64,000 nucleotides of DNA, from the NCBI GenBank assembly GCA_002314915.1, contig DCHU01000029.1, positions 35,452-99,451 of the forward strand, given 5' to 3'. This DNA comes from Bacillales bacterium UBA1744 (GTDB lineage: Bacteria > Bacillota_I > Bacilli_A > RFN20 > CAG-826). The notes below the pieces were generated by a model. That model saw only the letters and a list, made by a program, of their open reading frames with translations, searched no databases and was not told where the DNA came from. The position numbers and the translations under genes are program-made. Shown in pieces: positions 10,999 through 43,722 of the stretch. Within the stretch, counting starts at the first letter, position 1; the number at the start of each line of letters is the position of its first letter.

Positions 10999-11136
10999 AT
11001 AATCATATCATTTTATTCTTTCTTTTGAATGAATAACCATTCTTCTGTTTGGAGATATGGCGATTTTATCAAAGTTTCTTTGAAACATTGCACAATTGAA
11101 GATACACTATATCAGCACTTCATAAAGGAGAGAAAT

Positions 11137-11889
11137 ATGAAGAAATCATTATTAGGATTATTAATGGCAGCACCACTTATGCTCGCTGCATGTGGCGGAG
11201 GCAACACACCAGTTGAACCAGTTTCATCTGAAGAAGGGAGCGTTGCTCCTTCTGGATACAAATACACTGCTACATTCAAAGAAAACTCAGGCTTTGCACT
11301 TACAGGCGTTAAGGCTCAGTGGTGCGACACCACTTCCGGAATCTGCAAAACTCCAGTCGAGGTCAATGACAAAGGATATGCTGAAGCATACTTTGAAGAG
11401 TTATCAAATTACTATGTCCACGTTGTTGGATATAACACAGCAGAATGGGCATTCAACCCATATGCTCACATCGCTACACCAGAGAATAGAGATGTCGAGA
11501 TCAAGATGACATATGTCGCTCTTGGTGATGTAGAACACACAGCAAATACCTACATGACATGTCTCCAGACAATCTCAGACGTTGCATATAACATAACCCT
11601 CTCGCAGGACGAATCGTTCTACTTGGTATTCAACAACACCGGGGAACAGTCATACTCAATCGAGTCATGGCAGAGCGACGCAAACGCTGCAATGAAGGTT
11701 GAGCAAATCAACGGTTATGATGAAACTGTGATTGGCGAAGGCGTTGAAGCAGAGAACGGCAACTTCAAATATGAGTTCTCTCACAACACAACAGACAGGG
11801 TATCTTCCTATTTCAAAATCACATTAACGAACAACCCATATAGAAGCGGAAAGCCTTACACATTCCCATTCTCTATCGTTGAGAAATAA
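11137..11889 (+). CDS. Lipoprotein, unknown function
   Basis: I trimmed the track ORF (11029) to the ATG at 11137, which is preceded by AAGGAGAG. The signal peptide with lipobox is MKKSLLGLLMAAPLMLAAC. Confidence 0.7.
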   Translation: MKKSLLGLLMAAPLMLAACGGGNTPVEPVSSEEGSVAPSGYKYTATFKENSGFALTGVKAQWCDTTSGICKTPVEVNDKGYAEAYFEELSNYYVHVVGYNTAEWAFNPYAHIATPENRDVEIKMTYVALGDVEHTANTYMTCLQTISDVAYNITLSQDESFYLVFNNTGEQSYSIESWQSDANAAMKVEQINGYDETVIGEGVEAENGNFKYEFSHNTTDRVSSYFKITLTNNPYRSGKPYTFPFSIVEK

Positions 11890-11903
11890 GCGCAAAACAA
11901 ACA

Positions 11904-11928
11904 AAAATCCCGGAAATCCCGGGATTTT
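11904..11928. terminator. Bidirectional terminator between convergent genes
   Basis: AAAATCCCGG aaatc CCGGGATTTT forms a perfect 10-bp stem flanked by A and T runs. Confidence 0.8.
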
Positions 11929-11936
11929 CTTTTATT

Positions 11937-13520
11937 TTACTTTGCGATTCCAAGCATTTCGGCATAACACTCAAGGGTGTCCATTCCGATTGCATTTGTC
12001 TCCACACCGATGATCACGCCTTCACTGTCAAGGACGACCGTAATAGGGAATCCGTTGGTCGTGAAGTGTGATGCATACGATGCGTTGTAGTCCATACCGA
12101 AGTCCATGTACATCGTTGTCCAGTCAACTTCAGGTCTCTCTTCTGAGATGTAGTCCCTGCACTCCTCTTTGGTATCAATAGAGTCAAGGATGATTAAATC
12201 TAAGTCGCCTTGATACTTGTTGTAGAAATCCTGGAAGTGAGGCATTTCAGTCTTGCAACCAGCACAGTCGACATACCAGAAGTTAAGGATGGTTGGCGTT
12301 CCGTAATGGTCAGAGATTGTCCATGTTCCGTCGCTTCTAACAAGGTCGAATGTTGCATCAGGCGCAATCATACCGACTTGATATCCCTCAGGAACAGTAT
12401 CGAAGAAATTGTAATAGACAAGCGCAGCGCTTAAGACAACAGTCATTGTTACGCCGACGCCAATTGCCCAACCTTTTTTAAGTTTGTTTCTTGGCTTAGG
12501 GTTCTTTGCGATTGCCTCTGGTCTGATTCTCTCCTGCTTAACAGGTTCAACAACCACTGGTGTTTCGTTCTTGTTTGCCATCTCTGCAAGATTGAGTTTT
12601 CTCTCTGGGATTGGAGTCTCGATTGCGTTAGGAGCAAGGAAGATCTTATCGCCCTTCCACTTGATTGCGTTAACAGGGCAAACAGGGATACATTCTCCGC
12701 AAGAGATACATTCGTGGTCACCAACGTGTTTGATGTCCATCTTACATTTATCTAAGCAAAGTCCGCAGTTTGTGCATGTAACAGGGTCATATTCAACGCC
12801 GAACAAGGCGATTTTGTTGAAGAAACCATAGATTGCGCCAAGTGGGCAGAAGAATCTGCAGAAGAATCTATAGATGAACATTGAGGCCACGATGAACACC
12901 ATAAGAAGACTGAACTTCCAGGTGAACAGAGGTCCCATATCACCCATGTTTGCAGGGTCTGACATTAAGAAGAGAGAACCTTCAAAAGTGCCAACTGGGC
13001 AGATGTATTTACAGAAGGCAGGAATCTGCATTCCGATGAATGAATACATGATTGGGATTGTGACAACGAATACGGCAAGGATTACATATTTGAGGTATGA
13101 TGCAATTCTTGACCATTTGGATTTCTTGAGTTTTGGAGTCTTTACCTTGTAAGCGAACTCTTGGAGCATACCAACTGGGCAAAGCCATCCGCAGATGGTT
13201 CTTCCGCAGATGAGTCCGAAGAGCATGATGCATCCAATTACATAGTAAGGCGTTCTTGTATCAGCGGATTCGAGTGAGTTCTGAAGTGCACCTAAAGGAC
13301 ATGTTCCAATAGCACCTGGGCATGAATAGCAGTTGAAACCAGGCAAGCATGCATACTTGGTGTTGCCAGTGTAGATGCTCGCGTTGATGAAGCCTTTGAT
13401 GTTTGCGTTGTAAAGAAGCGCTACATAGAGCTGAACGATTCTACGTCTGGTTGGTGCATGGTCTTTTAACCAACCCCATACGTTTTTGAAGAACTGTTTA
13501 ATCTTATTCATACTATCCAA
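11937..13520 (-). CDS. NapH/NosR-like polytopic 4Fe-4S protein fused to a C-terminal TM + TlpA/ResA-like thioredoxin domain
   Basis: There are four CxxxCP(V/L)G motifs (CYSCPGAIGTCPLG, CGWLCPVG, CKYICPVG, CRFFCPLG). A 2x[4Fe-4S] ferredoxin motif follows (CTNCGLCLDKC...CISCGECIPVCP), then a basic/Pro linker, then the TM GWAIGVGVTMTVVLSAALVYY. The thioredoxin fold is ILNFWYVDCAGCKTEMPHF...GFPITVVLDSEGVI. Confidence 0.8.
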   Translation of the reverse strand: MDSMNKIKQFFKNVWGWLKDHAPTRRRIVQLYVALLYNANIKGFINASIYTGNTKYACLPGFNCYSCPGAIGTCPLGALQNSLESADTRTPYYVIGCIMLFGLICGRTICGWLCPVGMLQEFAYKVKTPKLKKSKWSRIASYLKYVILAVFVVTIPIMYSFIGMQIPAFCKYICPVGTFEGSLFLMSDPANMGDMGPLFTWKFSLLMVFIVASMFIYRFFCRFFCPLGAIYGFFNKIALFGVEYDPVTCTNCGLCLDKCKMDIKHVGDHECISCGECIPVCPVNAIKWKGDKIFLAPNAIETPIPERKLNLAEMANKNETPVVVEPVKQERIRPEAIAKNPKPRNKLKKGWAIGVGVTMTVVLSAALVYYNFFDTVPEGYQVGMIAPDATFDLVRSDGTWTISDHYGTPTILNFWYVDCAGCKTEMPHFQDFYNKYQGDLDLIILDSIDTKEECRDYISEERPEVDWTTMYMDFGMDYNASYASHFTTNGFPITVVLDSEGVIIGVETNAIGMDTLECYAEMLGIAK

Positions 13521-14349
13521 TTCCTATGCACTCTTTGCAGATTGCGACTGCCTTCTTTAGAGCTTCTGCCGCTCCACCATTGAGGATACCTGCAACTATA
13601 AATGTGATGGCCATAACCAAAATTACGCCTCTAATAATCCAAACAGATTTATCGTTAAGTTTTCTTCTTGGGAGTGGTCTTAAATCATTTTGAGAGGATT
13701 TTAGCACTGCTTTTAACGATTCATATTCAAGTTTTGCCCATAGTTCATTGAGGGCAAACACGATTACTGCGGTTGCAAATGAGATAACGACGAATGGAAG
13801 AACATGCTCCATGCACTTAGCCATTTCCTGCATAAGAGGGATAGTCGCGGTCTCAACGAAATTGTTCTTGTTGAGCAAGTATCCATATGAGAGGCCCGCA
13901 CAGGCTGCTGTGATGACTAAGGACACAATGAAACCAATGAGTCTTCTTGTTTTGTATTTCTTAATGAGGGAGTATTCAATTTCCATTCCAACAACCGGTT
14001 CTTTAGGGAGTTTGGCTTCAAGCTCTCTGATGTTGTCAGCTTTGGCGCCTTTGTATCTCCATCTTCTTTCTTCATGAGGGAAGACGTATGAGAGGACACC
14101 TGCCGTGACGAGCAATATACCCCATAGAATGACGATTGCCATGATTGGAGAGAATGCTGCCCATATGGTTTCTGGAGTATATGGATGGTCGTCCATAGTG
14201 CCTCTATATGTGGCAAATAACCACTGGACTCTAACGATGAAAAGAACACCAACAACGATGGTCAAAAGACCTAAGACTGCTTCTATAATGAAGCATGCCT
14301 TTTTGGCTGGTGTTAGCATTTTGAACTTCTCAATGAGGGCTTTCATCAT
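13513..14349 (-). CDS. Multi-pass membrane protein ending in a CD1871A-like CXXC module
   Basis: The C-terminus ...GILNGGAAEALKKAVAICKECIGIG matches my recollection of the short CD1871A-family CXXC proteins (ICxECIGIG). Its stop overlaps the downstream 4Fe-4S gene start by 8 nt. Confidence 0.6.
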   Translation of the reverse strand: MMKALIEKFKMLTPAKKACFIIEAVLGLLTIVVGVLFIVRVQWLFATYRGTMDDHPYTPETIWAAFSPIMAIVILWGILLVTAGVLSYVFPHEERRWRYKGAKADNIRELEAKLPKEPVVGMEIEYSLIKKYKTRRLIGFIVSLVITAACAGLSYGYLLNKNNFVETATIPLMQEMAKCMEHVLPFVVISFATAVIVFALNELWAKLEYESLKAVLKSSQNDLRPLPRRKLNDKSVWIIRGVILVMAITFIVAGILNGGAAEALKKAVAICKECIGIG

Positions 14350-14355
14350 GAGCCG

Positions 14356-14385
14356 ATTATAAATTAACTAAGGTTTAAAACTCAA
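14356..14385 (-). promoter_or_regulatory. Promoter giving a leaderless transcript of the CXXC/4Fe-4S pair
   Basis: The minus strand reads TTGAGT (14380-14385), an 18-nt spacer, TATAAT (14356-14361), then 6 nt (CGGCTC), then the ATG at 14349. No SD is present. Confidence 0.55.
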
Positions 14386-14493: not shown

Positions 14494-16269
14494 ATGAATA
14501 CATCTTGGGACTTATCAAGAATCTGCTCTTCTCAGGAAGAATTTGAGAAGGGTTTAGCCTGGTGCAAAGAAGTTGCAATTCCAGGTGTCGCCTCATTCAA
14601 AGGCAAACTCGGAACCGAAGAGGGATTAATCGGTTATTTGAATCTCGAAAGAGAGATCGAAGAAAAACTTTCTAAGGTCGCTATATTCGCCAGCATGAGA
14701 AGCGATCTCGACAAGAGAGACACTAAAAACGCTCAGGATTTAGCAAGAATCCACTTAGCGTATAACGACTTGGGGGCAGCTGACTCATATTCACAGCCAG
14801 AAATCCTCGCTTTAGGAAAAGAATACATGGATGCGTTCTTTGAAAAACATCCAGAATTCAAAGACTTCGACTACCAGATGGACAAGCTCTTCAACTCACA
14901 GAAGTTCGTTCTTGATGGTGAGAAGGAAGGGTTGCTCGCTAACTATAGCGCGCTCTCAAATGCAGGATCACAGCTCTATTCCATGTTATCCGTTGCAGAC
15001 GCTATGCCAAAAACCATCACTTTATCTGACGGAAGAGAACTCACTGTCACTCAGTCCAATTGGACACACGAAGTAGAACATGCAAAAACCGAAGAAGATA
15101 GAAAAGCAATCTTCGAGGCTTTGTATAGCTACTATGACGAGAGAAAGAACACCTATGGTGAAATCTATGCTCAGGTATTGAACGCAGAGATGGCAACCCT
15201 CAAATCAAGAGGATTCTCATCCATTCTCGAAGAGCACCTCTTCACAAACAAGATTCCAACAAGCGTCTTCACGAACCTCGTTGAAGTAGCCTCAAACAAC
15301 AGCGCAGCTCTCAAGAAGTATTATGAGATTAAGAGAAAATATCTCGGCTTAGAGAAATTCCGCTCATACGACAGATTTGTCCAGCTCGCTAAGAGCGATT
15401 CCAAGTATACATATGAAGAATCACTTAAGATCTTCTATGACTCACTTGAAGGTCTTTATACAGAGGACTACAAGGCTAAGGCTAGAGAAGTCACTGCAGA
15501 AGGCTATGTTGATGTCTTCCCTGGAGCAGGAAAGAGAACAGGTGCTTACTCAACTGGCGGCTATGGAGTTCACCCATATATTCTTTTGAACTTCAACGGA
15601 GGTTTAGACGATATATTCACTGTCGCGCATGAAGCGGGACATTCAGTACACACCATGTACTCAGATGAGGCTCAGCCACTTTTGAAGCAGAATTACACCA
15701 TTTTCGTTGCAGAAATAGCTTCAACATTCAACGAACACAACTTAATTGACTACTTGATGCAGAAAGAAGACGTGTCAAAGAACGACAAGATCTTCCTCTT
15801 ACAGAAGGCAATCGATGAAATTTGCGCCACATTCTATCGCCAGACATTATTCGGCCACTACGAATGGGAAGCAGCTAAGAAGGCAGAGGCTGGTGAGCCT
15901 ATCAACCACGAGGTCTTATCAAACATCATGGTCGACCTCTATCAGCAGTATTACGGCATCGATATCAGAGAAGAGAAGTATAAGCAGTATGTTTGGGCTT
16001 ATATCCCACACCTCTTCTACACTCCATTCTATGTCTACCAGTACGCCACATCATTCACCGCTTCAATGTTGATCTATGAAAACGTTAAGGCAGGTAAACC
16101 AGGAGCATTCGAAAACTACATCAATATGCTCAAGATGGGCGGAAGCGATTATCCAATCGACGAGGTTAAGTCAGCAGGCGTTGACCTCACGACAAAAGAG
16201 CCATTCCTCGCTGTTACAAGACGTATGGAATATCTCGTTGATGAGTTGGAGAAACTCTTAACAGAATAA
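14494..16269 (+). CDS. pepF: Oligoendopeptidase F (M3B family)
   Basis: It is 591 aa with the zinc motif HEAGHSVH and typical PepF length and context. RBS AAGGAGA lies upstream. Confidence 0.85.
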   Translation: MNTSWDLSRICSSQEEFEKGLAWCKEVAIPGVASFKGKLGTEEGLIGYLNLEREIEEKLSKVAIFASMRSDLDKRDTKNAQDLARIHLAYNDLGAADSYSQPEILALGKEYMDAFFEKHPEFKDFDYQMDKLFNSQKFVLDGEKEGLLANYSALSNAGSQLYSMLSVADAMPKTITLSDGRELTVTQSNWTHEVEHAKTEEDRKAIFEALYSYYDERKNTYGEIYAQVLNAEMATLKSRGFSSILEEHLFTNKIPTSVFTNLVEVASNNSAALKKYYEIKRKYLGLEKFRSYDRFVQLAKSDSKYTYEESLKIFYDSLEGLYTEDYKAKAREVTAEGYVDVFPGAGKRTGAYSTGGYGVHPYILLNFNGGLDDIFTVAHEAGHSVHTMYSDEAQPLLKQNYTIFVAEIASTFNEHNLIDYLMQKEDVSKNDKIFLLQKAIDEICATFYRQTLFGHYEWEAAKKAEAGEPINHEVLSNIMVDLYQQYYGIDIREEKYKQYVWAYIPHLFYTPFYVYQYATSFTASMLIYENVKAGKPGAFENYINMLKMGGSDYPIDEVKSAGVDLTTKEPFLAVTRRMEYLVDELEKLLTE

Positions 16270-39087: not shown

Positions 39088-40227
39088 TTAATAAGAAGTC
39101 TTGTTATGTCCACCGTGGTATGAACGGGATTCACTGTAACCATCATCGGTTTCTTTATCAAATGCGCTGTAATGGAGGAGGTCGGAGAGTCCGATATAAT
39201 CGCTTTCCACGACATCGCTGACTTTCACGTCGTCGTCATACTTGAAGTTTAACTCACATGAGAACTCGTATTTATCTAGTGACACGAGCGGGTTGTCTTC
39301 GATCGTGATCTCTGTTTTGAGTTTGGAGTAATCGAAGCGGATTCCGTTGAATCTTCCGTTATCTGTGTCGATGTTCGTTGTGATAAGGGCCTCATCGGTG
39401 TCGGTTGCCACTTTAATGGAATGAGGTTTAGTCTCAACTACTTCTGCTTCTCCTTTGTTGATGATGGAGTTGATGAGAGCGATGTTTTCGTCATCTGAGA
39501 GATTTGAGAATCTAGCGTTCTCAAGCATTGAGATAAAGTATTCAGGGAACTTATTGAAAATGTCGTTCTTTCCGATGGTGTAGTAATAATTGATGTCAAT
39601 TTTGAAGTTATCAATCAAGGTTGTTGACCAGGAAACGGATTGTTTCGTGTATAGGCGTCCATCTCTATATATCGCATTGATGTTATGGCTTGCGACATAA
39701 TGAGTTAATGGAGTATCCTCGGCAAGCGTAACAGCGCTACTCATCTCGAATCTCGTCCCGTTGGTATCCTGAATGAAGTCGAATGAGTAAGCCTCATCAT
39801 CGCTCTCGGACCAAGTCATTCCGATTGCAGTTGCTTCCATTGCATAATGGAGTTTGTAATCGACGTGATATGAGTATTCTGTTAAGTCATTGGCTCTCTT
39901 GGCTTTTTTGTTTGTGTTGCCGTTCTCAAGGTTTGCAAGAGTTGTGTATGAGTTGGAATAAAGAGCGGATGCCTTTGCTTTCTTTTCTGGATCTGTGATT
40001 TTGCCAGTTGCGAAATCAGGGTTTGTTGAACCCATTGGGATGATGATAGCGGCAACAATTCCAGCGGTTAAACCTAAGGCGAATAAGGATGATAAAGAGG
40101 CAATTAAAGGGGTTTTTGATGATTTTTTCTCGGATTTAAGCTCTAATTTGGCCGCCAATTCCTCGAAATGGTCTTCTGCGACGAATTTGGATTCGACATC
40201 TTTTCTGTACTTGTCTTCCGTTCTCAT
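39088..40227 (-). CDS. Anti-sigma-factor-like single-pass membrane protein
   Basis: Its start overlaps the sigma gene stop by 4 nt. It has a short cytoplasmic N-terminus, one TM (LIASLSSLFALGLTAGIVAAIIIP) and a large ectodomain. No zinc-finger anti-sigma motif is present. Confidence 0.6.
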   Translation of the reverse strand: MRTEDKYRKDVESKFVAEDHFEELAAKLELKSEKKSSKTPLIASLSSLFALGLTAGIVAAIIIPMGSTNPDFATGKITDPEKKAKASALYSNSYTTLANLENGNTNKKAKRANDLTEYSYHVDYKLHYAMEATAIGMTWSESDDEAYSFDFIQDTNGTRFEMSSAVTLAEDTPLTHYVASHNINAIYRDGRLYTKQSVSWSTTLIDNFKIDINYYYTIGKNDIFNKFPEYFISMLENARFSNLSDDENIALINSIINKGEAEVVETKPHSIKVATDTDEALITTNIDTDNGRFNGIRFDYSKLKTEITIEDNPLVSLDKYEFSCELNFKYDDDVKVSDVVESDYIGLSDLLHYSAFDKETDDGYSESRSYHGGHNKTSY

Positions 40228-40739
40228 TTCTCTTTCTCCTTGTAGTAATCTTTAAGCTTCTTTATTGCCTTGTAGTATTTGCCTTGTATCGTTCCAAGCG
40301 TTTCTTTTGTTTCGTCTGCGATTTCTTGGAACGTGTAATCGTAGACGACTTTCAGTGCGACAATGCTCGCTTCATCAACCTCTAATACTTTATTGAGGGT
40401 GATCGTCAGTTCTGCATCATTCAGGTCCTCGGTGGAGATGGAGTCTATCATCTCATCGGTCGCTGACGCTCGTTTCGTCTTCCTTCGGTATAGGTCGATC
40501 GCCTCGTTTTCTGCCATTCTTGACAGGAGTTGTTTGATCGATGAGTCATCATCCACTCCTTCTATGTTCTCCATGAACTTGATGAATGTCTGTTGCGTCA
40601 CATCTTCTGCGTCTTCCTTGTTGTTGAGCACCGAGTAGGCTCGATAGAAGACGAGGTTTTTGTATTGATGGTAGACAATATCAAAAGCTTCGAGCGACTT
40701 CCGTTTTAGGCGTTTAATCAGCTTTGAATCTTTCCCCAT
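40224..40739 (-). CDS. ECF-type sigma-70 family RNA polymerase sigma factor
   Basis: Region 2 is AEDVTQQTFIKF...NEAIDLYRRK and region 4 is YTFQEIADETKETLGTIQGKYYKAIKKLK. It is 171 aa. Confidence 0.8.
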   Translation of the reverse strand: MGKDSKLIKRLKRKSLEAFDIVYHQYKNLVFYRAYSVLNNKEDAEDVTQQTFIKFMENIEGVDDDSSIKQLLSRMAENEAIDLYRRKTKRASATDEMIDSISTEDLNDAELTITLNKVLEVDEASIVALKVVYDYTFQEIADETKETLGTIQGKYYKAIKKLKDYYKEKEK

Positions 40740-40750
40740 ATCTACCTCTC

Positions 40751-40766
40751 AACCAATGTAACGAAT
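40751..40766 (-). promoter_or_regulatory. Shared upstream motif (copy 2), candidate autoregulated ECF promoter element
   Basis: The minus strand reads ATTCGTTACATTGGTT about 12 nt upstream of the sigma ATG. Confidence 0.4.
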
Positions 40767-40837
40767 ATCTATCCTTATTTTATTTAAGAAATTTGCAATG
40801 TTCCGTAATATTACTCCCATTCGTTTCTAAAACGAAC

Positions 40838-40861
40838 AAAAAAGGCCGGTTTGCACCGACC
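40838..40861 (-). terminator. Terminator after the TlpA-like lipoprotein gene
   Basis: The minus strand reads GGTCGGTGCAAACCGGCC followed by TTTTTTG. Confidence 0.7.
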
Positions 40862-40866
40862 ATTTA

Positions 40867-41715
40867 TTACTGTTGTATCTCAAATGAGTTTTTCTTGTAG
40901 AACACCGGTTCGTAATCATCCCCGGTGAAGGAATCTATTAGGTTAGAGAATTCCTGGGAATCAAGAATCTGTCCATTCATCAAGAAACAGATGAATCCAT
41001 ATCTATCGATAATCGCTGTTGTAGGGAATGATGTGACTCCATATCCGCCTGTCATGTTATCGTAGTCGTATGCGATGTCGAAGTTGAAACCCTTATCCTC
41101 TTTTGCCTGGCACAAGAGTTCATCGGTTCCATCTTTCTTGTCGTAGTAATCTACGCCCAACATATATGCACCGTTGTCCTTGTGTGGAGCATAAGCTTTG
41201 GTTATGCATGGTGCTTCCATATCGCAAGCGGAGCAGTCGATGTACCAGAAGTTGAGAATCAGGCAATCGTTTGTCCTGAGTTTATCTTTGAGAGTTATAA
41301 GCTCTTTCTGAACCTTCCCATCTTCAGTTTTCTCAAGCGTCATAAAGGAATAATCATATGCGATATTGCCAATTCCGATTGTCGTTCCTCTTTCAAGAGG
41401 CTTACTGATGAGTTCTGACTCAAGAACAATCGTGTAGTCCGTCATGCCATCGAGTTTGAACGATTCAATTTTTGAATATCCGTCAGGAAGTGATTTGAAT
41501 TCAACGGTACCAATTGCGGAGGCGTTTTTCAAAACGGCACTGCCTTTGTAGTTGGTGACGTATGACTTTCCGTTTAACGAAAGTTCAACGCCTTCAACTG
41601 GAAGGTTGTGTCTATTGATAATGGTAACAGTGATTGGGACTGATTTTGAGCAGCCGACCAAGGAAGCTAACATCATCGCGATAGGTAATATGGCGATTTT
41701 AGCGTATTTTTTCAT
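40867..41715 (-). CDS. Lipoprotein with C-terminal TlpA/ResA-like thioredoxin domain
   Basis: The lipobox is MKKYAKIAILPIAMMLASLVGC. The redox motif is LILNFWYIDCSACDMEAP, followed by SFPTTAIIDRYGFI. Confidence 0.75.
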   Translation of the reverse strand: MKKYAKIAILPIAMMLASLVGCSKSVPITVTIINRHNLPVEGVELSLNGKSYVTNYKGSAVLKNASAIGTVEFKSLPDGYSKIESFKLDGMTDYTIVLESELISKPLERGTTIGIGNIAYDYSFMTLEKTEDGKVQKELITLKDKLRTNDCLILNFWYIDCSACDMEAPCITKAYAPHKDNGAYMLGVDYYDKKDGTDELLCQAKEDKGFNFDIAYDYDNMTGGYGVTSFPTTAIIDRYGFICFLMNGQILDSQEFSNLIDSFTGDDYEPVFYKKNSFEIQQ

Positions 41716-41720
41716 AGTTT

Positions 41721-43577
41721 TTAGAATTCTTTGTATGCCATTACGAGGAACATGACTTTCTTGCCTTCGAGCATCAATACTGCCTGAGCGCCGAGTTTGT
41801 CTTCGCCAGCATAGTATAAATCATTTTCGTAATCACCCTTAAATGTGTAATCAGGATCGAGGTCCCAACCGGAGTTTACGAATGCCTTCGAGATTGCCGT
41901 TGCTGCTGCAAGAGCCTCTTCCTGGGTCTCATATGTGAGGGCGTACATGTATCCGAAGTACACTTCTTCGTACTTGTAGACGTACTCAGCTTTGTAGAAG
42001 TCAGTCATATCGGAGAATCCGACACGTGATGCTTCTTTGAGCGTCGTTGGGAGCTCAGGGAACATGTTGTAATCTTTGTGGATTGAGTTGAACTGGCTGA
42101 CGAATGTGGACCACTCGGTGTCATCGCCATAGTCAGTTGTCATTGGTTCTGTTGCGTAGAGGGAAATCGAGAAACTTGCCGTATTTGGCTTGTTGTCGAT
42201 TTCGATGAAATATGAGTATCCACCGTTTGAGATGTAATAAAGAACGCTGTTGTCTGTTCCAAGTTTGGAATCATCGAATGAGATGAATCCAGAGTTCTCT
42301 AACTTTGTTGCATATGCCTGGAGATTCTCTAATGCCACTTCTGCACTTGAGTATTCAGATGAGAATGTGTCTAAGAAATAGAATCCAAGGGTTGGCGCAT
42401 ATGATGAGTAATCGGTGTAGACGAATGAGATATCTTCGGTTGATGTGAAGTCAACGATTGGTTCTAGTTCGCATTCCGTTGCTCTCTTGTTTTTGAACGT
42501 GTTGAATCTAGCGATGCTGTATATTTCTTCGGAAGCATAGCTTAACTTGAACTGGCCCTGTGGATAGTAGGTCGTGTAGTAGTCTTTCTCATAGTAATAA
42601 TCATCGAGATAATCACCTGAGATCCAGGCAGCCTGAACATACTGTTTCTTGACGAGTTCTCCGTTATCTAAAATGTCTCTGTGGTAAATCTTTGACTCGA
42701 AGCCGACCTTCTTTGTTGAGTCGTTGTCTGTTTCGTGCGAGTCAAGAGTCCAACCAGCGTTAGCGAGTGTATCGCCGAATGAGGAAACGACGTTTCCACA
42801 TCCAAGGTCTGTTAAGACTCTCTGGCTGTCATTAACTGTAACGGCGTATGAAGCGTCGTACATTGGGAGAGCTTCACCCAAAAGATCAACCATATCCGCT
42901 TTCATAGATGCTGGATAATCCGTGATTTTCTCCATTTTGGTTGGGTTTGCTAAATAGGCTTCAACAACAGCGTCTTTCGTGTTTCCGATGTCGGAGAAGT
43001 CGAGGTTTACATCATATTCGGAGAAGCTGAACTTGATGTTAGCGGTTGAGCAATCCTTATGTGAAGGGAATGTGAGAGTAATCTTGTTGTCGATAATCTT
43101 GTCGGCAAGTGACGATTCTCCTCCAAGGAATGCAGCATAGTAGACGATGTCCTTGTCTGTTGTTGTGTAGACGTTCATGTCTTCATCATCCTGCTCCCAA
43201 GCATCGATGTCTTCGAATAACTTGGCTGGGTAATATGTTAAATCGCTGATTTTGAGATTTGCGTTGATTGTCTCGCAATAGTCGATGGAGATGTTTTCTC
43301 CATAATAAAATCTGAATGAGCCTTGCTCGGTTCTGAGATATCCAACGTCTTTCTTATCGAAATCCTGCTCGTATGCTTTGCTGAAATCATAGAAGAATGC
43401 ATCATCTCCTAAGAAATATGTCTGCCACAATCCATCAACATCGATTGTGCAGTTTCCGGCCTTCAATGAATCGGCGAATTTTTCGATGACTGTTCTAGTG
43501 TCTTTTGTCTGTCCGCAGCCTGCGAGAAGCATGGTAGCGGAGGCAAGAGTAACCATTAATTTATTAAATTTCTTCAT
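41721..43577 (-). CDS. Large lipoprotein, unknown function
   Basis: I trimmed the start to the ATG at 43577, after GAAGGAGAC. The lipobox is MKKFNKLMVTLASATMLLAGC. Confidence 0.7.
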   Translation of the reverse strand: MKKFNKLMVTLASATMLLAGCGQTKDTRTVIEKFADSLKAGNCTIDVDGLWQTYFLGDDAFFYDFSKAYEQDFDKKDVGYLRTEQGSFRFYYGENISIDYCETINANLKISDLTYYPAKLFEDIDAWEQDDEDMNVYTTTDKDIVYYAAFLGGESSLADKIIDNKITLTFPSHKDCSTANIKFSFSEYDVNLDFSDIGNTKDAVVEAYLANPTKMEKITDYPASMKADMVDLLGEALPMYDASYAVTVNDSQRVLTDLGCGNVVSSFGDTLANAGWTLDSHETDNDSTKKVGFESKIYHRDILDNGELVKKQYVQAAWISGDYLDDYYYEKDYYTTYYPQGQFKLSYASEEIYSIARFNTFKNKRATECELEPIVDFTSTEDISFVYTDYSSYAPTLGFYFLDTFSSEYSSAEVALENLQAYATKLENSGFISFDDSKLGTDNSVLYYISNGGYSYFIEIDNKPNTASFSISLYATEPMTTDYGDDTEWSTFVSQFNSIHKDYNMFPELPTTLKEASRVGFSDMTDFYKAEYVYKYEEVYFGYMYALTYETQEEALAAATAISKAFVNSGWDLDPDYTFKGDYENDLYYAGEDKLGAQAVLMLEGKKVMFLVMAYKEF

Positions 43578-43722
43578 AGTCGTCTCCTTCGTCACGAGGG
43601 AAACAATAAAGGCAAACGGACTTTAAATCAACCATAAAAGGTTAATTTAGGGGCAAAAAGGTGCTTTTTAGACAGAAAGTAAATAAAAAAGAGAGCCAAT
43701 GGCCCTCTTATTTATCGTTTTC

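Follow-up and report, generated by a model that had tools for sequence, protein, structure and literature searches.

A NapH-like thioredoxin fusion protein and its CXXC-tailed partner as a candidate thiol-reductant module in Bacillales bacterium UBA1744

A 64,000-nucleotide stretch of the genome of Bacillales bacterium UBA1744 (contig DCHU01000029.1, positions 35,452 to 99,451; hereafter, the window) carries two adjacent genes on its minus strand. Gene 1 (13513-14349) encodes a 278-aa protein with a variable N-terminal domain of four transmembrane helices (TMs), a conserved last TM, and a CXXC tail. Gene 2 (11937-13511) encodes a 524-aa NapH-like membrane iron-sulfur protein fused to a thioredoxin (Trx) domain. 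As judged by gene linkage in related genomes, the pair is a fused variant of a three-part module composed of a CXXC-tailed partner, a NapH-like core, and a Trx domain predicted to be extracytoplasmic. Thioredoxins of the cell surface and the periplasm need a source of electrons, and to the best of our knowledge DsbD and CcdA are the only established membrane conduits for this purpose. From the comparisons described below, we consider it probable that the module exports ferredoxin-derived reductant to surface thiol-disulfide oxidoreductases and so does the job of CcdA or DsbD. A reductant relay independent of DsbD and CcdA had been put forward in the initial annotation of this DNA. It is supported here by the gene linkage, the type of Trx domain, the predicted topology, the absence of CcdA/DsbD, of twin-arginine translocation (Tat), and of quinone synthesis, and the co-occurrence of likely clients.

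The gene pair and its products

Both open reading frames are present on the minus strand as first annotated. An overlap of 8 nt between them had also been described, but this would need gene 2 to start at a TTG at position 13520, whereas the public gene call (524 aa) and the N-termini of homologs fit an ATG at 13511. The junction between the genes reads TAG-T-ATG, with a 1-nt gap. Gene 1 is preceded by a sigma-70-type promoter (TTGAGT-18 nt-TATAAT; 14356-14385, minus strand; 10/12 match in a promoter scan). The TATAAT element ends 6 nt before the gene 1 ATG at 14349, and no Shine-Dalgarno sequence is found between the two. The two closest genomes (L012 and L013), whose proteins are ~75-79% identical to those of the window, have the same TTGAGT-N18-TATAAT-N6-ATGATG layout. 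This is reasonable comparative support and suggests that the gene 1 transcript is leaderless. The spacing from which a leaderless pair was originally proposed is present, and the support for leaderless expression itself is comparative.

The gene 1 protein has five hydrophobic segments in a hydropathy analysis, and its successive loops, read from the N-terminus and including the tail, contain 5, 2, 13, 2, 8, and 3 Lys and Arg residues. The N-terminus is predicted to be inside and the 21-residue tail outside, and the same orientation is predicted by hydropathy and the positive-inside rule across 65 members of the partner family. Residues 242-278, comprising TM5 and the tail (...NGGAAEALKKAVAICKECIGIG; 13516-13626, minus strand), make up a CD1871A-type module. 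They match the NCBIfam model NF040920 (CD1871A_fam) with 33.4 bits against a cut-off of 32, and with 37.8 bits in a six-frame search of the genome. The polytopic character, the ICKECIGIG ending, and the CD1871A signature first read from the sequence are all borne out by this match and by the five TM segments.

A word-indexed protein search with gene 1 gave just seven relatives, and a full scan of representative sequences with a hidden Markov model (HMM) was used instead. By this method the partner family comprises 2021 representative clusters; it has no Pfam model. The tail of gene 1 (...AICKECIGIG-stop), which contains the CXXC pair Cys-271/Cys-274 (13528-13539, minus strand), is 89-100% conserved in 65 relatives, and residues Lys-266, Ala-267, Cys-271, Cys-274, Gly-276, and Gly-278 are 100% conserved in the family. 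The last TM and the tail are the sole part of the family conserved at ≥85%, the four N-terminal helices being without any such residue.

Gene 1 and the proteins described by NF040920 have in common the last TM with the extreme C-terminal sequence IC.ECIGIG, and for both the next gene downstream encodes a NapH-like protein with CYSCP and CX3CP motifs. However, typical CD1871A members are single-pass proteins of 45-60 aa whose NapH-like counterparts are ~300 aa long and lack Trx, whereas gene 1 has the module at the end of a 278-aa protein with five TMs. Given this length and the four extra TMs, gene 1 carries the CD1871A domain but is not a typical member of that family.

The N-terminal part of the gene 2 protein is a NapH-like membrane core (residues 20-232; 12816-13454, minus strand) containing a kinked TM1 and TM2-TM4, as delimited by Fer4_5 matches, alignments, and the helices of an AlphaFold2 (AF2) model. 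The match to Fer4_5 (PF12801) scores 56.8 bits in three stretches against a gathering score of 22. Matches to Fer4, Fer4_7, and Fer4_16 define a 2x[4Fe-4S] ferredoxin-type domain (residues 240-295; 12627-12794, minus strand), which is predicted to be cytoplasmic. Its eight cysteines (Cys-246/249/252/256 and Cys-268/271/274/278) are all invariant in alignments of 52 and of 116 sequences. A basic linker (residues 296-345) with a pLDDT of 56-64 follows, and then TM5 (residues 346-370; linker and TM5 together 12402-12626, minus strand), recognized from hydropathy and a modeled helix. The Pfam matches and the AF2 model agree with the ferredoxin module, basic linker, and additional TM of the initial annotation.

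Four CxxxCP motifs had been counted in this protein. Three of them are indeed of the form CX3CP (CGWLCP, CKYICP, and CRFFCP), but the fourth, CYSCP, is a CX2CP motif. The invariant cysteine groups of the core fall on both sides of the membrane in the predicted topology. Cys-55/Cys-61/Cys-64(/Cys-71) and Cys-167/Cys-171 are placed in outer loops, and the CX3CP pairs Cys-107/Cys-111 and Cys-218/Cys-222 are placed at the inner face. Cys-55 and Cys-71-Pro-72 are invariant or nearly so, with Cys-71 present in ≥90% of rows. The four-helix core, two CX3CP motifs, and C-terminal 2x[4Fe-4S] domain constitute the architecture of NapH/MauN. The NapH/MauN models TIGR02163 and NF007013 are also the best-scoring named families, although the scores of 83.9 and 63.5 bits are below the respective cut-offs of 213 and 234. 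The NosR equivalog model gave 26.8 bits against a cut-off of 1000.

The C-terminal part of gene 2 is a TlpA/ResA-like Trx domain (residues 375-524; 11940-12389, minus strand) identified by Pfam, PDB, and Foldseek matches. The Pfam matches to AhpC-TSA (41.4 bits), Thioredoxin_8 (39.4 bits), and Redoxin (31.1 bits) are all above cut-off. The ResA model NF002854 gave 47.9 bits against a cut-off of 170, so the domain is a relative of the ResA group rather than ResA itself. Sequence matches in the PDB were to SdbA, ResA, StoA, Etrx, and TlpA. In Foldseek searches the TM-score on the target was 0.86-0.89 for ResA, with Etrx2, CcmG, StoA, and SdbA the next structures. The active site is Cys-416-Ala-Gly-Cys-419 (12255-12266, minus strand), accompanied by Glu-422 and the cis-proline Pro-489. 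All four named residues are invariant in 52 sequences, and the CxxCxxExP motif and cis-proline of the reductive TlpA/ResA proteins are thus kept. The active-site sequence FWYVDCAGC that had been singled out as unusual is present; it is a lineage variant, most relatives having WCxPC or WCGGC.

The nature of this domain bears on what it may do outside the cell. It could destroy peroxides or feed methionine sulfoxide reductases in surface defense and repair, as in the CcdA-Etrx-MsrAB2 system of Streptococcus pneumoniae. The AhpC-TSA and Redoxin matches would suit such a role, as would the presence of Etrx1/2 and SdbA among the closest solved relatives; streptococcal CcdA-Etrx-MsrAB pathways are known (PMC3914529, PMC7034828), and the carriers of the module are oxygen-sensitive gut anaerobes. 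However, the active site is a TlpA-type CXXC and not a peroxidatic cysteine motif of the peroxiredoxins, and no Msr gene is among the recurrent neighbors of the module. We therefore think an antioxidant or repair function unlikely. It would in any case involve the same outward flow of electrons as the export of reductant to surface oxidoreductases, with only the client being different.

An AF2 model based on the 52-sequence alignment had an unreliable membrane part (mean pLDDT 66.6) and was replaced by one based on the 116-sequence alignment, which includes cores of the short form of the module described below. The resulting model of gene 2 has a pLDDT of 88.8 and a pTM of 0.80. It contains helices TM1 (residues 22-43, kinked), TM2 (87-110), TM3 (132-157), TM4 (193-212), and TM5 (346-370), followed by a thioredoxin fold. 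The top 50 Foldseek matches in the PDB were to the thioredoxin domain only, with no solved analog of the membrane core among them.

The orientation of the gene 2 protein was deduced from relatives in which the Trx domain is a separate gene. These split Trx genes begin MNK-TM-DHNEDY, a type II signal anchor, which places Trx outside independently of the rest of the protein. Working back from an external Trx domain, one would place the ferredoxin domain in the cytoplasm, together with the CX3CP motifs that follow TM2 and TM4, and loops 1 and 3 would face outward. The net charges over the family (+3.6 for loop 2, -0.3 for loop 3, and -17 for the Trx region) agree with this topology. Of 53 carriers, 48 lack TatC, and the host is one of them. 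The ferredoxin domain would consequently not be exportable in folded form, and hence would be cytoplasmic, and an outer Fe-S center would not be deliverable by Tat. The Trx domain is accordingly predicted to be membrane-anchored at the outer face; the initial annotation had proposed an outward-facing domain, and a cytoplasmic position finds no support in the anchor, the charge distribution, or the absence of Tat.

Separately, Arg-23 and Gln-27 at the start of TM1 are invariant (consensus T-K-R-R-L-I-Q; residues 20-27, ~13431-13454), and the sequence has a superficial likeness to a twin-arginine motif. We considered whether this conserved RR might direct loop 1, loaded with a cluster, to Tat for export, and rejected the idea for the lack of TatC in those 48 of 53 carriers.

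Distribution of the module and of other reductant routes

Relatives of gene 2 are numerous, 7553 proteins being found at E ≤ 0.001 among 8000 candidates examined. Their public names are generic only, such as "4Fe-4S binding protein" or "redoxin family protein." In a scan of one genome per species, the fusion was found in at least 599 species, nearly all of them uncultured gut Clostridia. The carriers include Oscillospiraceae, Christensenellaceae/Borkfalkiaceae, Lachnospiraceae, and others.

Linkage of the parts was counted in 80 long-form loci that were kept for this purpose. An open reading frame for a partner ending ...KA..IC(T)ECIG(L/I)G lies directly upstream of the fusion gene in 78 of these loci, and in 80 of 80 if a wider window or a variant tail is allowed. 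Trx is fused to the core in the large majority of the loci. It is split off as a TM-anchored gene in four, and also in genome G592 of the host's family, the TM anchor of the split form being the counterpart of gene 2 TM5.

A short form of the module was found through the short CD1871A genes (open frames of 45-100 aa). Of 200 evenly drawn Clostridia, 36 have such genes, as do 6 of 299 genomes from the phylum of the host. In each readable short-form locus the CD1871A gene is followed by a NapH-like gene of ~300 aa with no Trx domain. The NapH-like gene has CYSCP and further CX3CP motifs, three in nearly all of the loci read. When wider flanks were inspected, 15 of 20 short-form loci proved to have a co-directional Trx lipoprotein gene at a distance of one or two genes. 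Fusion, fission, and adjacency thus link the same three parts. The gene-neighborhood survey suggested along with the initial annotation found the partner and the NapH-like gene adjacent in every locus read, with Trx fused, split, or nearby.

A phylogeny of the membrane cores places short-form and Trx-linked proteins in two clades with 100% local support. Copies from Bacilli make up three small, distinct clades at the base of the Trx-linked clade, where the branching is not resolved, and the window copy does not cluster with those of the other two carriers in its family. Within the host's phylum the module is rare (6 of 299 genomes), and it is absent from five genomes of the host's genus. This distribution is in keeping with an accessory module that is exchanged among gut Bacillota along with its clients.

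Two further observations were made in this survey. Two carriers of the fusion (L040 and L058) are labeled Alloprevotella sp. and Bacteroidaceae, and their sequences nest among Clostridia copies; this may reflect a binning error or a lateral transfer into Bacteroidota. Genes for an OmpR-type response regulator and a histidine kinase stand beside the short-form module in locus L006 and in 5 of 20 sampled loci (L129-L148), which suggests regulated expression of the short form.

The same regulators count in favor of a system for metal handling, in which the CXXC tail and outer cysteines would bind or reduce copper or iron at the surface in the manner of the cupric reductase CcoG or of copper delivery by TlpA/Sco. 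CXXC tails are typical metal ligands, and a weak match to CcoG/RdxA/FixG (E = 0.0036) was obtained. The CcoG model, however, has a cut-off of 317 and gave a score of 16 bits. Metal transporters and cuproenzymes are missing from the recurrent neighbors, and the third component, which is constant in the module, is a thiol-disulfide oxidoreductase. A function in metal handling is consequently very unlikely.

We searched for established routes of thiol reductant in the host genome, which is 1.69 Mb in size and 91% complete. No match to DsbD_TM (PF02683) or DsbD_2 (PF13386) was found in the window, gene 1, gene 2, or the host genome. The lack of CcdA/DsbD noticed in the window thus extends to the whole genome. 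Matches to DsbD_TM over cut-off were found in none of 50 carriers of the module, as compared with 89 of 200 evenly drawn Clostridia (Fisher p = 1.8e-11, a value that ignores phylogeny). DsbD_2 was found in 3 of 53 carriers.

The homology to NapH/MauN (83.9 bits) raises the question of whether the core is a NapH-type quinol dehydrogenase that passes electrons from menaquinol to the surface Trx. The membrane domain of NapH has indeed been proposed to oxidize quinol (PMC5928378). However, no quinone prenyltransferase of the UbiA/MenA type was found in the host or in 52 of 53 carriers, whereas 14 of 14 control genomes were positive, making a quinol donor of the kind proposed for NapH very unlikely. 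The NapH models are far under their cut-offs, as noted above, and no nap genes were found in the neighborhood. Taken with the absence of UbiA/MenA, these findings nearly exclude a quinol dehydrogenase. The host genome encodes pyruvate:ferredoxin oxidoreductase (PFOR) and an [FeFe] hydrogenase with a NuoF-like subunit, so low-potential ferredoxin or flavodoxin should be available to the 2x[4Fe-4S] domain.

Surface lipoproteins and other neighbors

Gene 2 is separated from a convergent gene by a bidirectional intrinsic terminator (11903-11929, both strands; 10-12 stem pairs in a terminator scan). The convergent gene (11029-11889, plus strand) encodes a lipoprotein, the likely start of which (MKKSLL...LAAC) is inside the listed open reading frame. 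It has an Ig-like domain with a cysteine pair (AQWC-x6-C) and matches no Pfam or NCBIfam family above cut-off. A homolog occupies the same position in L012. Ig-like neighbors were counted more widely with a two-round profile search. The profile matches a neighbor in 40 of the 80 module loci, mostly at +1 or +2, i.e. the next one or two genes downstream. About half of the copies of the Ig-like domain contain a C-x(2-12)-C pair. In the host the profile matches three proteins only, namely the convergent lipoprotein, a large Trx lipoprotein described below, and the neighbor of the latter. The convergent lipoprotein belongs to a conserved neighbor type of the module and is a candidate client or partner.

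Three surface Trx lipoproteins are encoded by the host, all of them with an Ig-like domain toward the N-terminus. One of the three is encoded in the window (40867-41715, minus strand) and has a TlpA-like Trx domain (AhpC-TSA, 34.7 bits) with the active site ILNFWYIDCSAC..E.P. The FWYIDCSAC motif reported earlier for this lipoprotein is present and lies in its redoxin domain. It is 27% identical overall to the fused Trx domain of gene 2, with a near-identical active-site stretch, and probably receives reductant from the module or acts together with it. The other two Trx lipoproteins are encoded outside the window, at C77_1372-2271 and C30_3392-6076. The latter has 895 aa and consists of the Ig-like domain, a TlpA-like Trx domain, and ~600 aa with recurring "DGYYH" and "W..L.CYYY" motifs; no match to this large domain was found in Pfam, in NCBIfam, or among PDB sequences. 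On contig C30 (1165-6076) a 737-aa Ig-like lipoprotein is encoded beside the 895-aa protein, and a side-by-side pair of this kind is also recorded at L124 (4832-9981).

The large surface Trx proteins follow the module in the host's family. Among 61 genomes of this family they are found only in the host (G000), G113, and G592, which are the carriers of the module. In G592 a single cluster encodes the partner, the NapH-like core, and Trx as a separate gene, together with two lipoproteins, one of 817 aa that has a "VQWC...C" Ig-like domain and one of 897 aa that has a Trx domain. The 817- and 897-aa lipoproteins are homologs of the host's C30 pair, and their genes are directly beside the module.

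Other features were observed around these genes. The Trx lipoprotein of the window belongs to a minus-strand group (39088-43595) in which it is preceded by the gene for a 624-aa lipoprotein without known family (41721-43595). Downstream of it are an ECF-type sigma factor (40224-40739; Sigma70_r2 and r4_2) and then a 379-aa single-TM protein that could be the anti-sigma factor of this sigma factor. The ECF sigma factor may place surface redox proteins under envelope-stress control. Divergent from gene 1 is a gene for an M3 oligoendopeptidase F (14494-16269, plus strand). Recurrent neighbors of the module besides the Ig-like proteins include large lipoproteins without known family. Genes for an S8 protease recur in 15 loci and those for Opp-type ABC transporters in 6, and a link of the module to the use of extracellular protein or peptides is possible.

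Proposed electron path and relation to known systems

In the path that we propose, reduced ferredoxin or flavodoxin from the PFOR/hydrogenase system would donate electrons to the two [4Fe-4S] clusters of gene 2. The clusters would reduce the inner CX3CP pairs Cys-107/Cys-111 and Cys-218/Cys-222, and these in turn would reduce the outer set Cys-55/Cys-61/Cys-64/Cys-71 and Cys-167/Cys-171, acting with the CXXC of the partner. From the outer cysteines and the partner CXXC, reductant would pass to Cys-416/Cys-419 of the Trx domain. The Trx domain would then reduce disulfides on surface proteins, likely the three Trx lipoproteins and the module-linked Ig-like lipoproteins with cysteine pairs. We infer from the comparisons above the direction of electron flow, the donor, the clients, and the preference for dithiol pairs over extra metal centers. 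In NapH, NosR, and RdhC the CX3CP motifs are known to be essential, although no function has been assigned to them (PMC5928378). Since NosR holds at most eight Fe, a disulfide at CX3CP is considered likelier than an extra cluster (PMC5928378).

The architecture alone leaves the direction of electrons unfixed, and the flow could be reversed. The surface Trx would in that case oxidize secreted thiols in the manner of DsbA, and the core would carry electrons inward as an analog of DsbB/VKOR. Many neighboring lipoproteins have cysteine pairs that may be structural disulfides, and carriers have no quinones, so the classical DsbB/VKOR route is unavailable to them. On the other hand, Trx belongs by sequence and fold to the reductive TlpA/ResA/CcmG/StoA/Etrx group and keeps the CxxCxxExP motif. 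Transfer from thiol/disulfide to low-potential [4Fe-4S] centers would be uphill according to general redox potentials, and the carriers are strict anaerobes with PFOR and hydrogenase metabolism. Inward flow is accordingly improbable.

Several points weigh against the outward export of ferredoxin-derived reductant. The host's whole family is without CcdA whether or not the module is present, so the complementary distribution of module and CcdA is partly phylogenetic. CcdA also occurs in 9 of 36 carriers of the short form (versus 80 of 164 non-carriers, p = 0.01). A crude motif screen found no gene for a small 2x[4Fe-4S] ferredoxin in the host. TM1 of gene 2 is marginally hydrophobic (mean Kyte-Doolittle value 0.03) and loop 1 has a net charge of +3.2, an uncommon value for a loop on the outside, so that this segment may be re-entrant or buried in the membrane. 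Finally, the coupling of one-electron Fe-S centers to the two-electron reduction of a disulfide needs chemistry like that of ferredoxin:thioredoxin reductase (FTR) or heterodisulfide reductase (Hdr), and no homology of the pair to FTR/Hdr enzymes was found in Pfam at E ≤ 0.01. A possible chemical precedent is nevertheless offered by FTR and the heterodisulfide reductase HdrB, where Fe-S beside a redox-active cysteine pair turns one-electron donors to disulfide reduction. These enzymes have no sequence similarity to the module, and both are soluble or cytoplasmic.

The combination of known parts in the module is itself, to our knowledge, undescribed, as is the job that we propose for it. The component kinds are known, and NCBI models the tail without a functional name. 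It had been allowed at the outset that the fusion might belong to a characterized family with a different role. The literature searched contains no description of the module and no assigned role for the family. NapH-like proteins have been presented as modular transmembrane electron conduits to extracytosolic FMN domains (PMC8238504), and a search of that paper by term did not find a Trx-linked version. A 2025 review of clostridial disulfide enzymes makes no mention of 4Fe-4S, ferredoxin, CcdA, DsbD, TlpA, or a "reducing pathway."

The proposed function has most in common with that of DsbD, CcdA, and ScsB. These systems likewise bring reductant across the cytoplasmic membrane to an anchored TlpA/ResA-like Trx outside, their clients including ResA, StoA, CcmG, TlpA, Etrx1/2, and SdbA. 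DsbD and ScsB also fuse Trx-like domains to a membrane conduit, and DsbD/CcdA would do the same job as the module with a complementary distribution. Nevertheless, there is no homology between them. The conduit of the module is a NapH-like core with 2x[4Fe-4S] clusters, its donor is probably ferredoxin rather than cytoplasmic thioredoxin, and it needs a separate CXXC-tailed partner.

Close parallels in architecture are seen with NosR, RdhC/PceC, and the NapH-like systems (PMC8238504), all of which use a Fer4_5 core with CX3CP motifs as a modular conduit fused to an outside redox domain. NosR has a cytoplasmic 2x[4Fe-4S] domain as well. In the module, however, the outside domain is Trx, where these systems have a flavinylated FMN-binding domain, and no FMN_bind match (E ≤ 0.01) was found in gene 2. 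The module further differs from NosR and RdhC in having two extra invariant cysteine motifs in predicted outer loops, an obligatory CD1871A-type partner, and carriers without quinone synthesis. NapH/MauN, the quinol dehydrogenase subunit of periplasmic nitrate reductase, shares with gene 2 the four helices, the two CX3CP motifs at the cytoplasmic face, and the C-terminal 2x[4Fe-4S] domain. However, NapG, NapA, and NapC are not encoded near gene 2, and gene 2 has the extra outer cysteine motifs, an extra TM, and the Trx domain.

A more specific form of the proposal has, in our estimation, an even chance of being correct. Partner, core, and surface Trx would constitute a third class of thiol-reductant transfer system, non-homologous to DsbD/CcdA and driven by ferredoxin through Fe-S centers, in which the cysteine sets at both faces of the membrane do an FTR-like conversion. 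Its clients would be undescribed surface lipoproteins of gut anaerobes, such as the Ig-like proteins with cysteine pairs and those with "DGYYH ... CYYY" domains. To the general picture the window adds a Bacilli copy whose promoter is of a conserved, leaderless type. It further adds a family in which surface Trx lipoproteins are inherited together with the module, the Ig-like lipoprotein as a specific conserved neighbor, and the absence of Tat and of quinone synthesis in carriers.

About half of the sampled Clostridia are without DsbD/CcdA. If correct, the proposal would explain how surface thiols are reduced in many abundant gut anaerobes and would tie this process directly to ferredoxin metabolism. 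It would also provide a function for the CX3CP motifs common to NapH, NosR, and RdhC and a role for a family of tiny CXXC proteins. The module points to unknown surface lipoproteins as the likely beneficiaries.

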